Shown here piece by piece: positions 27,001-33,000 of a stretch of 40,189 bases of DNA (positions are counted from its first letter, which is position 1; each line of letters starts with the position of its first letter). Position numbers: made by a program. The stretch lies in the IMG/VR virus record IMGVR_UViG_3300023284_001453; one strand, 5' to 3'. Source of the stretch: a virus.

Positions 27001-30000
27001 TAACACCCTGTATAGAGAAAAATCCAATCATATATAAGAACAATGCGCTGTCAATTGGAGTTCCAAGGGCGCTTGATAACAATACACGTTGCGGGAACGG
27101 ACGTCCTGTAAACGAATAAACAGCCCAATCTGCAAACTCACTGACAAGAAATGCCGTAACACTTGCTATAGCAATAGTTGGATCTGCTAAGAAATAACTT
27201 AACACACCAGCCAGCAACATTGCTGGAATAACATAATGTCCAATTTCCCTCTGTGCAAAATCACGAAACACAAAAATCAAACCAACCAAAAATGTCGCAG
27301 TAGGAATAACAATACCCTCTCCTAGCGGCAATATTGGCAAAACACCAAACGCATAGTTTACTATTACAATTGACGCAACATAAAGCAACGTCCACCAAAT
27401 TTTTAAATCTTTAATCATTTTCTTCATTCCATAATGGGTTTATTATTTCATAATCTTCAAAAGAAGATAGCTCTGCAAAACCACAAACTGAATATCCAAG
27501 ATCCATATTCAATTTCATATAATCATCTTTGTCAAACTTACCATTTTGATAATCAATACACAACTGATTTAGATCGAGCCTACCTGTGTTGAAAAGATAA
27601 TCAAGCACAGTGTTCGTAGGAAACCTTTGAACTCCATGCTCATCAATATATGTTTCGTATGGTTGTCCGTTTACTAAGGTTATAATCCTGTCGCCGGGTT
27701 TGTAATCTTTCATATTTTCTTTTTATTACCTTTTTCGTATACAAATTTTTTACTACAATAAAAACAAATAGCATAATTTTTATGTTCCGGTATCACATAC
27801 CAGACAATTGGATGATCATGTGGTTCTTCGGGACCTGAACACACTACGTTCCTAGAGTGTACTATAACAGTTTCTTTTTCCATATATCATTCCAACCAAC
27901 CCATCTCCTTTAGGAAGTCACATTCGACACATAGCTTTGGAACAGCACATGTAAAACTTTCTGGTAATACAATTGTTCCATCGCATACCTTACAATAAAA
28001 AAACATAGGAGATCCAGCATACAAGGAAGAGTTATCTATCTTGTCAGGAGGATTATCCTGTCTTTCTTTTAACGCTGCTAATGCCTTTTGTTTTTCTGTT
28101 AAGCTAGATTTTTCCATATTACCAATTCCAAAATGCTTTACTTACTTTTTCAACTTTTTCTTTAAAAGTATTTTCTTGTGATAATGCAATCATAACAGCA
28201 ATCATAACAATTAGATAAAAAAGCATCCAGATCGCAGCAGCACCTGATCCAATTGCGACAAGAAGATGGACAGCGCCGCCAAAGCCCAGAAAAACGACAC
28301 CAACCATTAACGCTACCGCCACGATAGCTTTAATCATAATTTTAAAGAATGTAAACACTTCTACCTCCTATTTTTTAAAAGCAGCCGTATATTCACCTCT
28401 AGTCTGTCCACATGCTGCGCCAGTTTTTGATCCATCCGATGCATGATATTCTACAGTGTAGCCATCTTTCTTTAAAGCATCGGTAAATTCTTGTATCTTA
28501 GGACTGCCAGTAAATGCAATACCTGGAACTGGATTAAATTGTCCAAACTTAAGATACCAACTTGTATCCAAGTGTTTTCTAATCAATTCCAAATCTTCAT
28601 CGCGGTCGTTAACCCCATCCATAAGAGCAAAATTAAGCTCTATAGGTCTGTTAGGCTGGTTCTTTCTGTAGGTCTCCATCGCAGCGACAACTTCTTCTAC
28701 CGAATGAGCTAACGGCATTATTTCTTTTCTTATCACTGGATCTAAGCTATGCATTGAAACTTGTAGCTTAAAAGGAACGTCAAACTCTTCGTTAGAAAGA
28801 TCGACAATCCTCTTCGGCGCAGCACCCGATGTTGATAGAGCTAAGCGACAGTTTGAATAGTATCTTGGAAGATATTTCATTGTCCTAACGACATTGTTGT
28901 AGTTTAGAAGCGGTTCTCCTTCGCCCATAAAAGAGAATAATATCACCTTATCTTTTACGAGATTATTAGCTAACATCGTGTGACATTGAAGTAGCATTTC
29001 TTCGCATGTTAGATTTAACGTTTTTTCAGGACCAGGACTGGCACAGAAAGTACACCCTACCGAACAACTTAATTGTGTTGAAAAACATACTACTTGTTTT
29101 TCTGGTCTGTTAAAATAACATGCTTCAGCCTTCGTGTTGTCTAATAAATCAATCAGCATCTTTTGAACTGATGCTTGTCCCATTGGAATTGCTTGTTCTG
29201 TCATATTTTTGCTCCTTATATTCTTATATTACATTTCGTCCCATTGACCGATGGAGACAATATTATCGTTATCGTCAAATTCTGCTTCAAAATGAGCTCG
29301 ATATCCCGGCATAACTTCAACAAGCGTTTTCGCTCGTTTTGTATACAAATCATGTGTTCGAATATCATGAGATGTATTTGATTTTTGGAGAAGCATTAGA
29401 AACTGTTGTAAGTCTGTCATATTTTTGCTCCTTATTTTGGTGCCCGTAGAGGGAGTCGAACCCCCACTCCCAAAGGAACTGGATCTTGAATCCAGCGTGG
29501 CTACCGTTTCACCATACGGGCTTTATTTTGCTTTGGGCAATGTCACTGTAACTGTTGTCCCAACTCCAAATTCGCTTACGACATCAATGCTTCCGCCCAT
29601 AAGCCCTGCTAATTCGATAGATAACGGCAAGCCTAATCCTGTGCCTTCTTGTTCTCGATCAAATCCCGAATTTACCTGACCGAATTTTGTTAAGGCAGAC
29701 TTTAATCCCTCTTCGTCCATACCCATACCATTATCTTCGACGCTAATAACTACATTATCGCCAACAGCACATCTAATATCGATGCTGCCATTCATATCTG
29801 TAAACTTAACAGAATTCGACAACAAATTCAATATAATTTGTTTTAACCGAATTGGATCAGCATACACATATAAATCATCGCAATTTGTTTTGACCTCAAC
29901 GTTGATTAGCTTTTCTTGTGCCCTTTCAGCAATAAATCCTATACAAGCTTTAAAAATCGAATTTACACTGACATTTTCTGGATAGACCTCGGTCTTGCCA

Positions 30001-33000
30001 GCTTCGATCTTCGCAATATCAAGGATGTCATTAATTAGCTTGAGTAGATGATGACCACTATCAAAAATATCATTGGTATATTCTTGATGTTTGTCAGATA
30101 ATTTTCCGTTTGTTCCGTTCATCATAAATTCTGAAAATCCAATGATGGCATTTAAGGGTGTTCTAAGTTCATGGCTCATATTGGCCAAAAATTCAGATTT
30201 TGATCTGTTTGCTGCCAATGCAACATTCCTTGCTTCTAATGCTATATTCTTAGCCTCTTCATACTCCCCAGCTAAATCCATCAACTCTTGATTCTGTTCT
30301 TCAATTCTTCGTTGTGCTCTTTGAAGACTTTCGTAGTTTTCGATTAATTCTCGCTTAGTTTTTTTACTATTAATGATATCACAAACGATAGCCAATAGAT
30401 TAAGAGGTTTAGATAGGTATCTGGTCATGATTATATTCCCTGATCAACTTTCACTATCGTCTATATAAGCATACCATAGATCTGGCAAATGTCAAGCATA
30501 AAGGGCAGAGATATACACCTCTACCCTTTAATACTTTGTTAAGACAATATTAAAAAATATTTTACTATTTCTTTACTTAATCTTAATTATTCGTGCTTTC
30601 TTAGCTTCTGGTACTACACGAGTTAAGTCAATACGCAACATACCATTTTCCATTTTAGCATCACCTACATCGATGTCATCCGCGAGTCGAACAACACGAG
30701 TAAACGAACGAGATGCGATACCTCGGTGCAGATAGCGTCGGTCTTCGGTAAGCTCTTCTACACCACCAGAAATGGTTAAGATATTTCCTTCTTTTTCAAC
30801 AGTGATGTCTTTCTTATTGAAACCGGCAAGTGCCATTTCAACTTGATACACATCGTCATCAAGTTTTACTATATTGTATGGGGGATAACTGTCATAGGTT
30901 CCAATAGCATTTCTGAAACCATCAAAAATACGGTCGGCTCCGATAAAAGTGCGTTCTAAATCTTTTTGGACGTTGCTGACGAATCGGTCAAAATTTGTGT
31001 CATTACTCATTTTACTACTCCTTTTAAGCAAGTGTAATGTTATGGTCCAGCTTAGCTGCGACCGGTGTTAGACAAGTTCCAAACGGCAACCTGTTATAAT
31101 TATTTATTATATAATAACTTGTTTTAACTTGTCTATATTAAAAAATTAACTTTTTTACCAATTGTAGCTCTTTTTTTGTTTCTACCAGCGTAATATCAAA
31201 TTTTTTAATAAAAGCATCTCTCTCGGCAGGAGTAAAATGTAAAAAGGAAGCAAGGTTTTCTATAGAACCACCATCATATCTATAGCTGTGATCAGACATT
31301 TCTTCCAGGATTTCATCATCGAAACCTGTTACATGTGTAAAAACAGCTCTAACACGTTCGGAAGAATATGCGTACATTTCATTTCCTCATCGAAATGGAG
31401 AGTACACTTTACCCTCCATTTCCTAGTCTATAATAAATTTCTAATATAATAAAGCTAATACTCAAAAACATTAAAGAGTTTTTTTAATGTCATGGCGTTA
31501 GATTTTTATATATAATCATTTAAAGCTCAAAAGCCACCTAAATATGACTCATGGCATATACATATTTTTCATATCAATTATAATAATCAACGTATTTACG
31601 ATGTACATCTTTCCATTGATTGTAAGTATATTTATAGCACAGTCGTCAGTATCTTGTCTATTTGTTTTTTTACTTTTTTAACTTTCCATGGTGTAAAAAA
31701 TATAGTCGCTAAAGAGAAATAATCTGCACCAGCATTATGGTAATCAATTACATCTTGTGGTTCATATATTCCTCCTCCACCTATAACAGTAAGTTCAGGA
31801 AACAGTTTCTTTGTTTTTTCAATAAGTGGTAATGTTAGTTCTTTTAATCTTTTTCCACTCTCTCCGCCGTGTTCTGTTGGAATAGTATTACATAGATGAA
31901 CAGTTCGGATACCATTGCCTCTAGCAAATCCTATGTATCTAAGTGCTTCTTCTGTAGGGGGAATTTTTACGGAAACAAAACTAAATTTGGTATTGCATTT
32001 ATTGAGAATATCGTTAGTAATATAAGAGCGCCGAACATTAGGGCAACCAAGATTAATTTCAACCATAATGGAATCTGGAAGGATGTCCAGCATTTCTTTC
32101 CAATCACGGCGGCAGCTAATGTCAGTGCAAGAATAAATTCTATCGTTGCTAAAAGTTCTAACATTCCGAAGCCCTTTATTCCGAAATCCTATTTCGTTAA
32201 CCCAGCCGCCTTTGACAGGTCTTATTGTTTTTACAGTTTGTTTGATAAGTCCGGATCGTTTTTCTAACGTAAAGGTTCCGGAAACACTAGTAGCCCAATC
32301 AAAATTAAGATAATTACCAAATGGTGGTGATATAATAATTCTTTTAGGTTTATTTGGCATCCTTTTCTACAACTCTTGCTAACGGAGCATTTAGACGAAC
32401 CGATCTAATTCCATTTTTAGCACCAGCTTTTGAAGAATAACCTTCAGAGACAGCGATTACTTGACCGTTTCTAGCCATTAAATTCCAGCGCCATTCACCT
32501 TTTTTATCTTTCCAAAGTTCAAATTTTCCCATTGTTTTAGGTCTCCTAAAATAGTTGTGTAAACTATTTATAGAAGATACCACACCATAAAAACATATGA
32601 GAGATAATGAATAAGCTGATCTACACCCAACGAAGTCCAAAATTCAGAAGATTTATCGCAAGTCCAGCCCATCATTTTGTTTAAATTCATTTTGAACCAG
32701 TCAGTATGATAGTGGACAATTGCTTCGAAAAGAAGAATCATGAAAAATAAACTTGGTCCGAAAAATATTTTGGTCATTTGGCTGAACACAAGTAGAACAA
32801 AGAATGTTCCAATAGCATGGACACCGACATGGGCTAGGCCGGCGCGATGTCCATACGTGCCTTTATTGGTTGCCATCCAGACATTTTGAAGCGGAAAATC
32901 GCATACAAAATGCTTGACAATAAAGAGCGTTAATAAAAAAAGCTCTGGAGACATTATATTTACTCCGGAATTCTGTGTTTCCTATATGCTTCGACGATAA

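Follow-up and report, generated by a model that had tools for sequence, protein, structure and literature searches.

The IMG/VR virus record IMGVR_UViG_3300023284_001453 is a 40,189-nt stretch of DNA (hereafter the window, meaning the whole stretch analysed) that carries on its minus strand a gene for a 301-residue histidine kinase with a complete catalytic core and no input domain. The coding sequence is supported by the list of open reading frames (ORFs), Pfam, an AlphaFold2 model and the ratio of nonsynonymous to synonymous substitution rates (dN/dS). A first-pass annotation of the window had placed the kinase at 29523–30497. The location was right, but the coding sequence ends at 30428, and positions 30429–30497 comprise the 5′ untranslated region and the promoter. 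The gene call by JGI starts at the TTG of codon 12 and gives a protein of 290 residues; the ATG start is kept in a relative with 88% identity, where it is preceded by AGGAG. The kinase gene, its parts and its immediate neighbors are as follows:

29229..29420, minus strand: conserved 63-residue ORF after the tRNA, recognized by homology to loci L002 and L180
29438..29521, minus strand: tRNA-Leu(CAA), starting 1 nt past the kinase stop codon (ARAGORN)
29523..30428, minus strand: histidine kinase coding sequence, 301 residues plus stop
29529..29858, minus strand: HATPase_c (catalytic ATP-binding) domain, residues 191–300, with N, G1, F and G2 boxes (Pfam, alignment with HK853)
29997..30203, minus strand: HisKA (DHp) domain, residues 76–144, with phospho-acceptor H86 and phosphatase motif E87/T90 (Pfam, invariant columns, dN/dS 0.03)
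30204..30428, minus strand: residues 1–75, a short N-terminal piece and a long signalling helix (alignment, model)
30207..30248, minus strand: tandem 21-nt (one heptad) duplication, NIALEAR / NVALAAN, residues 61–74 (7-residue insertion relative to the rest of the family)
30468..30497, minus strand: sigma-70-type promoter, GC-TTGACA, 16 nt, TGg-TATGCT (extended −10; consensus scan)
30500..30529, minus strand: terminator-like hairpin ending the hsp20 unit, followed by UUUAU, immediately ahead of the kinase promoter (covariation, folding)
30573..31031, minus strand: hsp20, 144 nt upstream of the kinase (PHROG Hsp20, E = 7e-41)

The kinase gene and its transcription unit

By sequence and fold, the protein appears to be a class-I (HisKA) two-component kinase with predicted activity. 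Strictly speaking it is no sensor kinase, because the input domain is absent. A Pfam scan bore out the first-pass claim of complete HisKA and HATPase_c domains (residues 76–144, E = 5.5e-24, and residues 191–300, E = 1e-25), both with scores far over the curated cut-offs. The H-box is complete (S85-H86-E87-L-R-T90-P), and H86 within SHELRTP is invariant in 54 sequences. The same holds for N201 and N205 of the N-box, D232, G234 and G236 of the G1 box (D232-x-G234-x-G236), F249, and G262, G264 and G266 of the G2 box (G262-x-G264-x-G266): none is missing from the protein, and all are invariant among the 54 homologues. Overall, the catalytic residues varied little or not at all across alignments of 18 and 54 homologues, and the phosphatase motif HExxT (H86-E87-x-x-T90) is undamaged. 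The motifs are also in register with those of solved kinases (3dge, which is HK853, E = 3.6e-36; 7z8n, E = 1.3e-43). Degeneracy of the H-box or the G boxes, which the first-pass annotation had singled out as the decisive objection to its assignment, was thus not found upon alignment with the 54 homologues and HK853.

An AlphaFold2 monomer model, built on a 54-sequence alignment, had a mean predicted local distance difference test (pLDDT) score of 86.9. In this model, the N-terminus is a single unbroken helix (residues 8–103) that includes DHp helix 1; a helix at residues 112–142 comes next, and then the α/β ATPase domain with a flexible, low-confidence ATP lid (residues 251–258). Residues L28, L35, I42, L49 and Y56 follow each other in the sequence at an exact seven-residue spacing, as expected of a coiled-coil signalling helix. 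The model contains no globular domain ahead of the DHp domain, no Pfam domain was found before residue 76, and no membrane segment was detected by Kyte-Doolittle hydropathy, for which the highest 19-residue mean was 1.29 (threshold for a membrane segment, 1.6 over 19 residues). Model, Pfam and hydropathy agree with the earlier description of a coiled-coil N-terminus without sensor or transmembrane domain.

The gene is under purifying selection, and is therefore being maintained rather than decaying. Compared with the 88% relative, for which dS is unsaturated (0.35–0.42), dN/dS was 0.17 for the whole gene, 0.03 for the DHp domain, 0.18 for the ATPase domain and 0.33 for the N-terminal 75 codons, the last with very few changes. 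Compared with more distant relatives, where dS is saturated, dN/dS was ≈0.1. We also observed an uneven divergence from the kinase gene at positions 520–1425 of L178: codons 1–145 are 96–97% identical in nucleotide sequence to this closest relative, and codons 146–301 just 83%. Such mosaic divergence suggests recombination inside the kinase gene.

The promoter matches the consensus at 10 of 12 positions, has in addition the TG upstream of TATGCT, and spans 30495..30468 from hexamer to hexamer. In five aligned loci, the −35 hexamer does not vary and TGn-TAnnnT is kept, and a similar promoter stands ahead of the kinase in L172, L175, L177, L178, L179 and L088, and also in the more distant L087; in all, about ten relatives conserve the promoter. 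The consensus scan and the conservation in relatives support the host-type promoter (TTGACA-16-TATGCT) that had been reported at first pass. A count of the class TTGACA-N13–15-TGnTAnnnT gave five sites in the window, where 0.18 are expected, all on the coding strand (18514..18541, 22359..22386, 25586..25614, 30468..30495 and 33225..33252, all minus). By their pattern, these look like host-polymerase promoters dispersed over the block.

The hairpin that precedes the promoter was 100% paired in four distinct sequences, with two pairs altered on both sides, and has a free energy of −22.2 kcal/mol (z = −6.1). Since this covarying terminator hairpin stands between the two genes, hsp20 (≈40% identical to cyanophage and pelagiphage hsp20) forms a transcription unit separate from the kinase, which rules out an hsp20–kinase operon. 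The first-pass description of the kinase as lying beside hsp20 thus holds as far as adjacency goes, but there is no operon link.

At the other end of the gene, the 1-nt gap between the kinase stop codon and the tRNA-Leu leaves no space for a promoter of its own, so the tRNA is probably co-transcribed with the kinase. As the identical junction recurs in six relatives (L002, L003, L004, L175, L177 and L178), the tRNA is probably excised from the kinase transcript. Other tRNAs occur at this position: in L179, a tRNA-Arg(CCT) begins 7 nt past the kinase stop, and the tRNA of L180 that lies between the kinase and the conserved 63-residue ORF (positions 1500–1577) has an amber-reading CUA anticodon, which could indicate stop-codon suppression in that phage. 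The 63-residue ORF is 68–83% identical to ORFs behind the kinase in L002 and L180 (68% for L180), and gave zero matches in Pfam or PHROG. The order kinase–tRNA–ORF is retained in L180, a distant phage contig whose kinase is only 49% identical, but the ORF is not behind the kinase in L005, L087, L088 and L179; it is thus linked, not obligatory. One possibility is that it encodes a small regulator of the kinase. A 102-residue ORF that follows the kinase in two contexts was also considered, but proved to represent unrelated proteins.

Phage relatives, input ends and partner regulators

A whole-database protein search returned a close group of sequences with 60–88% identity to the kinase, followed by a drop to about 45–52% for cellular kinases, mostly from Alphaproteobacteria; taken together, the best cellular matches span 41–52% identity. 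In a neighbor-joining tree of the core only, the close group consists of 15 sequences in one clade (bootstrap 100). Sensor-bearing and sensor-less forms are interleaved inside this clade, with low internal support. The next branches of the tree, P0017, P0016 and P0019, are also on phage-like contigs, and two of them have a PAS domain. Within the clade, the input ends differ as follows:

No input end, core only: 253/257 residues; P0003, P0006, P0007, P0009, P0011–14
Helix only: 288 residues in P0008, 301 residues in the window and P0002
PAS: 410 residues; P0004
Two membrane-like segments and PAS: 492 residues; P0005
Membrane segment, periplasmic part of ≈130 residues, membrane segment: 443/452 residues; P0010 and P0015 (genomic context from short contigs of 2.5 and 3.2 kb)

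The kinase core is thus constant in its genomic slot and in related contexts, while the input end is variable. The slot itself is fixed, with hsp20, the terminator and then promoter, kinase and tRNA-Leu, in a large T4-like or jumbo-related phage. The conserved order leading up to it is ABC ATPase, vault-shoulder-domain protein, DUF3307, in some loci glutaredoxin and SufBD, DUF1508, DHO-dehydrogenase-like protein, a 79-residue ORF and hsp20. It continues with the kinase, tRNA-Leu, the 63-residue ORF, a zf-CHCC protein, an RlmN-like radical SAM protein and, farther on, an aldehyde dehydrogenase.

The 301-residue form retains a trace of a lost domain. In an alignment, residues 17–45 of the window kinase (DIINSKKTKRELIENYESLQRAQRRIEEQ) pair with the stretch of P0004 that closes the PAS domain and forms the linker (DITERKQAEQELIENYEILQEAQRTIEEQ), and the DIT motif in the last PAS strand of the PAS-bearing relatives corresponds to DII at residues 17–19. 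This alignment indicates that the 301-residue form arose by a deletion of PAS that kept the last strand and the PAS-to-DHp linker. The absence of a sensor is a derived state, as PAS or membrane sensors are present in close phage relatives that occupy this slot. The window kinase and P0002 are 95% identical in amino acid sequence over residues 1–75, and the heptad duplication is confined to these two 301-residue forms. Its two 21-mers match at 15 of 21 nt and, because the length corresponds to one heptad, the register of the coiled coil is kept.

A nucleotide search of the kinase locus against deposited phages gave zero matches, and IMG/VR contains no close relative (best match, 41% identity). 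Matches to proteins of deposited phages were mostly bacterial contigs mislabelled as phage, and were rejected; the best, MW462191, has a PleC-annotated kinase amid ordinary bacterial genes. With a conserved 23-nt intergenic pattern, true relatives were recovered solely from metagenome contigs, and the relatives' sample labels (LAZR01, names ending in _METAG) presumably denote marine metagenomes. Five loci (L169–171, L173 and L176) were left out as chance matches of the pattern in an unrelated element. The PHROGs families that match the kinase (phrog_20458, phrog_857 and phrog_10912) already contain kinases. In the literature, we found no description of this kinase family, nor of jumbo-phage HisKA kinases (the “moraphage” paper deals with a different lineage). 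What is new here is a phage-only kinase clade, with a natural series of input variants on one promoter-equipped core and a tRNA joined at its 3′ end.

We searched for a partner regulator with a receiver-domain hidden Markov model (HMM), which recovered a CprR-type regulator as positive control with E = 1.8e-22. The six-frame ORFs of the 40-kb window yielded no receiver domain (best E = 3.5), nor did 11–12 related loci totalling ≈150 kb, including the distinct contexts L087 and L180. Of a genome exceeding 142 kb, the search thus covered essentially a single ≈40-kb region, seen in several phages, together with two further contexts. This confirms that no response regulator is encoded in the window, as had been noted at first pass, while the label “orphan” applies to ≈40 kb of the >142-kb genome. 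Unrelated kinase loci on viral contigs differ in this respect: in 74 of 80, a receiver domain lies no more than 10 kb away. Among the closest cellular homologues, largely from Alphaproteobacteria, most lack a receiver domain within 6 kb; among 80 cellular homologue loci, 37 encode hybrid kinases (fused receiver), 6 have an adjacent regulator and 30 are without a receiver. Since the closest cellular homologues are orphans, the ancestral partner was presumably encoded elsewhere in a host genome.

Partner specificity of two-component kinases is set by residues of the two DHp helices (work of Skerker and Capra, PMC4426382). The phage clade and its cellular relatives share one consensus in DHp helix 1, and in helix 2 they differ only at a few weakly conserved positions; differences specific to the clade are located in the DHp loop and in the ATPase domain. 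With the DHp helices conserved, the phage kinase and its cellular cousins should dock regulators of the same kind.

The best cellular matches are alphaproteobacterial orphan PAS-HisKA kinases, with DivJ and PdhS as named members; the “PleC” labels that many homologues bear are automatic source names. These kinases have the same DHp helix-1 consensus as the phage kinase, the closest are also without an adjacent receiver gene, and the PAS–linker–DHp layout is common to them and the PAS-bearing phage relatives. The window protein differs in having no PAS or membrane part, in being encoded by a phage and in belonging to the separate, fully supported clade. Identity with DivJ or PdhS was rejected on NCBIfam scores (167.8 bits against a cut-off of 1000, and 156 against 2000), as was identity with PleC, TorS, BarA or LuxQ, all far under cut-off. 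The TorS, HrmK and LuxQ models outscore those of DivJ and PdhS on the shared kinase core. A hybrid kinase of the TorS, BarA or LuxQ type was likewise rejected, as the protein ends 1 residue past HATPase_c, the tRNA follows the stop, and there is no fused receiver. A defence role was also rejected, as no PADLOC family matched the kinase at E ≤ 0.001.

Soluble kinases of ≈300 residues are also encoded on chromosomes, for example P0092 (7.3-Mb contig) and P0107 (784-kb contig), which are 43–44% identical to the window kinase and share its architecture: a helical N-terminus of ≈65–75 residues, then the DHp and then the ATPase domain. They are cellular, however, fall apart from the phage clade, and have neither the PAS-relic sequence nor the heptad duplication. 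Residues 73–299 of the phage kinase align over the complete DHp and ATPase domains of Thermotoga maritima HK853 (3dge, 2c2a), but HK853 in those structures is an engineered cytoplasmic fragment of a membrane sensor that has an adjacent partner, RR468, whereas the phage protein is naturally truncated and unpaired. AgrC of the Clostridioides difficile phage phiCDHM1 is a phage histidine kinase without a phage response regulator, and signalling through a host regulator has been proposed for it (PMC4124054). It is a membrane peptide receptor of another kinase class, located in an agrB-agrD-agrC cassette of a temperate phage, whereas the window kinase is soluble, of HisKA type, unaccompanied by signal-producing genes, and carried by a T4-like or jumbo-related phage. 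The protein kinase of phage T7 (gp0.7) is reported to reprogram the host via phosphorylation of host proteins (PMC13645617). This enzyme belongs to another kinase class, has many substrates, does not use His-Asp phosphotransfer, and has no kinship to the HisKA/HATPase_c family. A phage kinase without a phage regulator therefore has a precedent in phiCDHM1 AgrC, and the architecture itself is not new.

The surrounding phage DNA

The window is phage DNA, with T4 gp30.3, MazG, dTMP kinase, ClpS and Cpn10-like genes, matches to baseplate-wedge and virion families, four homing-endonuclease-like ORFs and two tRNAs. Apart from the kinase unit, the following features were identified:

868..1497, minus strand: homing-endonuclease-like ORF (GIY-YIG/NUMOD3)
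1641..1982, minus strand: Cpn10-like protein (E = 7e-05)
2471..3004, minus strand: stand-alone DnaE-like polymerase fragment, 177 residues, ≈40% identity to jumbo phages
8720..13738, minus strand: 1672-residue protein with N-terminal subtilase, eight He_PIG Ig-like repeats and a cadherin-like stretch
15347..16108, plus strand: homing-endonuclease-like ORF (GIY-YIG/NUMOD3)
18153..18545, minus strand: ClpS adaptor (E = 6e-29)
22131..22349, minus strand: Flp/Fap pilin-like gene with promoter at 22359..22386 (Pfam, E = 3.8e-07, just under the gathering score)
23625..24158, plus strand: homing-endonuclease-like ORF (GIY-YIG/NUMOD3)
24596..25417, minus strand: homing-endonuclease-like ORF (GIY-YIG/NUMOD3), with no counterpart in L002
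25414..26928, minus strand: aldehyde dehydrogenase, 65–68% identity to alphaproteobacterial enzymes
26930..27427, minus strand: Vut_1/YhhQ-like transporter (E = 1e-06)
28368..29204, minus strand: radical SAM protein, 278 residues, closest to RlmN and Cfr (TIGR00048, E = 2.8e-42, under cut-off)
33895..36471, minus strand: 858-residue protein with major-vault-protein domains (MVP_shoulder, E = 6e-22; Vault_3, E = 2e-12)

The matches of the DnaE-like fragment are in jumbo phages of 284–490 kb (Atu_ph07, PA5oct, XacN1 and SCTP-2), and one relative sits on a 142-kb contig. The aldehyde dehydrogenase matches enzymes annotated as L-piperidine-6-carboxylate (aminoadipate-semialdehyde) dehydrogenase, and is 53% identical to one in the 636-kb uncultured phage LR756504; its kinship hints at an alphaproteobacterial host or donor. 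The radical SAM gene lies two small ORFs downstream of the tRNA-Leu. Together with hsp20, the Vut_1/YhhQ-like, ClpS and Cpn10-like genes make up a notable proteostasis and uptake gene set.

The vault-domain protein, unusual in a phage, is ≈82% conserved in the phage relatives, always a few genes upstream of hsp20, and was matched by none of the NCBIfam, PHROG or PADLOC families. The 1672-residue protein with subtilase and He_PIG repeats is probably a virion surface or fibre protein. The promoter of the Flp pilin-like gene belongs to the same class as that of the kinase; matching features occur in L002 (19616–20713) and L003 (12923–13108), and relatives add an RcpC-domain gene. These genes represent Tad/Flp pilus parts in a phage that looks lytic. 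A glutaredoxin and SufBD-family pair is found upstream of the DHO-dehydrogenase-like gene in L002 (5687–8102), L003 and L005. In L002 and L003 it lies between DUF3307 and DUF1508 (neither flanking gene was called in L005), and it is absent from the window (32350..32954), L086 and L177, a presence/absence polymorphism of an iron-sulphur assembly cassette.

Possible roles during infection

The most economical reading of these data, which we hold tentatively at a probability of about 0.42, is that the phage makes a signal-independent kinase from a host-type promoter, and that this kinase acts on a putative host regulator that is ordinarily under the control of a related orphan sensor kinase. The protein would derive from an alphaproteobacterial-type PAS sensor kinase that lost PAS by an N-terminal deletion, and would have retained the last PAS strand, the coiled-coil linker, the DHp domain and the ATPase domain. 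Host RNA polymerase would read the kinase and the tRNA-Leu as one unit from the near-consensus extended −10 promoter. Without an input domain, the kinase would autophosphorylate H86 irrespective of signal, and the phosphate would be handed to the host response regulator that related host orphan kinases ordinarily serve, so that a host pathway might be locked on during infection. In this scheme, we infer the autophosphorylation, the signal independence, the host target, the net kinase direction and the early expression. The cross-phosphorylation of host regulators proposed at first pass is strengthened by the near-identical DHp helices and the orphan status of the cellular relatives, with a target that is putative. 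The accompanying suggestion that stress or nutrient signalling is rewired found no support: no evidence points there in particular, and hsp20 is in a separate transcription unit.

Several points weigh against this reading. The region covered represents ≈40 kb of a >142-kb genome, and a receiver protein may be encoded by the phage. The net direction could be dephosphorylation, because the H-E-x-x-T motif is intact, and removal of PAS can lock a kinase off as readily as on. Since sensor-less kinases of ≈300 residues from the same subfamily are found in cellular chromosomes, the architecture is not a phage-specific adaptation, and since some relatives retain PAS or membrane sensors, signal independence is not family-wide.

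The sign of the output could thus be the opposite: the protein might act mainly as a phosphatase or phosphate sink that silences a host pathway, such as stress, motility or cell cycle, during infection. Many PleC-like relatives in this subfamily are known to act mainly as phosphatases. The family keeps H86-E87-x-x-T90 with little or no variation, no part of the protein is more constrained than the DHp domain, and the docking helices are conserved with those of the cellular relatives. A pure phosphatase would, however, not need the ATP-binding domain, which is conserved, including its G1, F and G2 boxes (dN/dS as given above), and we regard this alternative as rather unlikely. A similarly doubtful proposition is that the partner regulator is encoded elsewhere in the large phage genome, making the kinase part of a phage-internal two-component switch, for instance for the timing of gene expression. 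The extent of the region covered, relative to the 142-kb contig of one relative, leaves room for such a gene, kinase–receiver pairs are common in unrelated viral loci, and the relatives with PAS or periplasmic sensors resemble real signal receivers. On the other hand, no receiver domain was found in any frame of the window or of the related loci, L087 and L180 included, and the closest cellular relatives are also orphans.

Neither phosphotransfer nor dephosphorylation would be required if the protein were a decoy that acts by binding, forming mixed dimers with a related host kinase via the DHp helices or sequestering a regulator in a dominant-negative manner. The close match of the DHp helices to those of the cellular relatives would permit this, and the 253-residue forms, which consist of a bare dimerization and catalytic core, have the appearance of a decoy; but H86 and every ATP-binding residue would then be superfluous, and their conservation makes this idea very unlikely. 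That the gene is a decaying passenger, a captured bacterial kinase fragment without a role in infection, is highly improbable: although the N-terminus is truncated and the sensor is variably present among relatives, the gene is under purifying selection, its catalytic residues are invariant, its dedicated promoter is conserved, and it is kept across the 15-member phage clade down to 60% identity.

The signal-independent kinase aimed at a host regulator could also be one state of a more general arrangement. In this proposal, which we consider a long shot, the family is a cassette whose output is fixed and whose input can be exchanged: core and promoter stay constant while the sensor is swapped or deleted, and different phages would supply one host pathway, of the alphaproteobacterial orphan-kinase type, with a selected cue or with an unvarying signal. 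Candidate targets would be single-domain or diguanylate-cyclase regulators of cell cycle, pili or motility.

Bacteria rely mainly on two-component kinases for their sensory wiring. Phage genes that connect to it appear in database annotations, but have received hardly any study. The family described here offers a natural experimental series, with one kinase core in one genomic slot and five different input ends, which lets one ask which host regulator is addressed, and what benefit a sensed cue brings compared to a constant signal. If the target were a cell-cycle or surface-structure regulator, the kinase would represent a new route of host takeover, for which it is at present a well-documented candidate.

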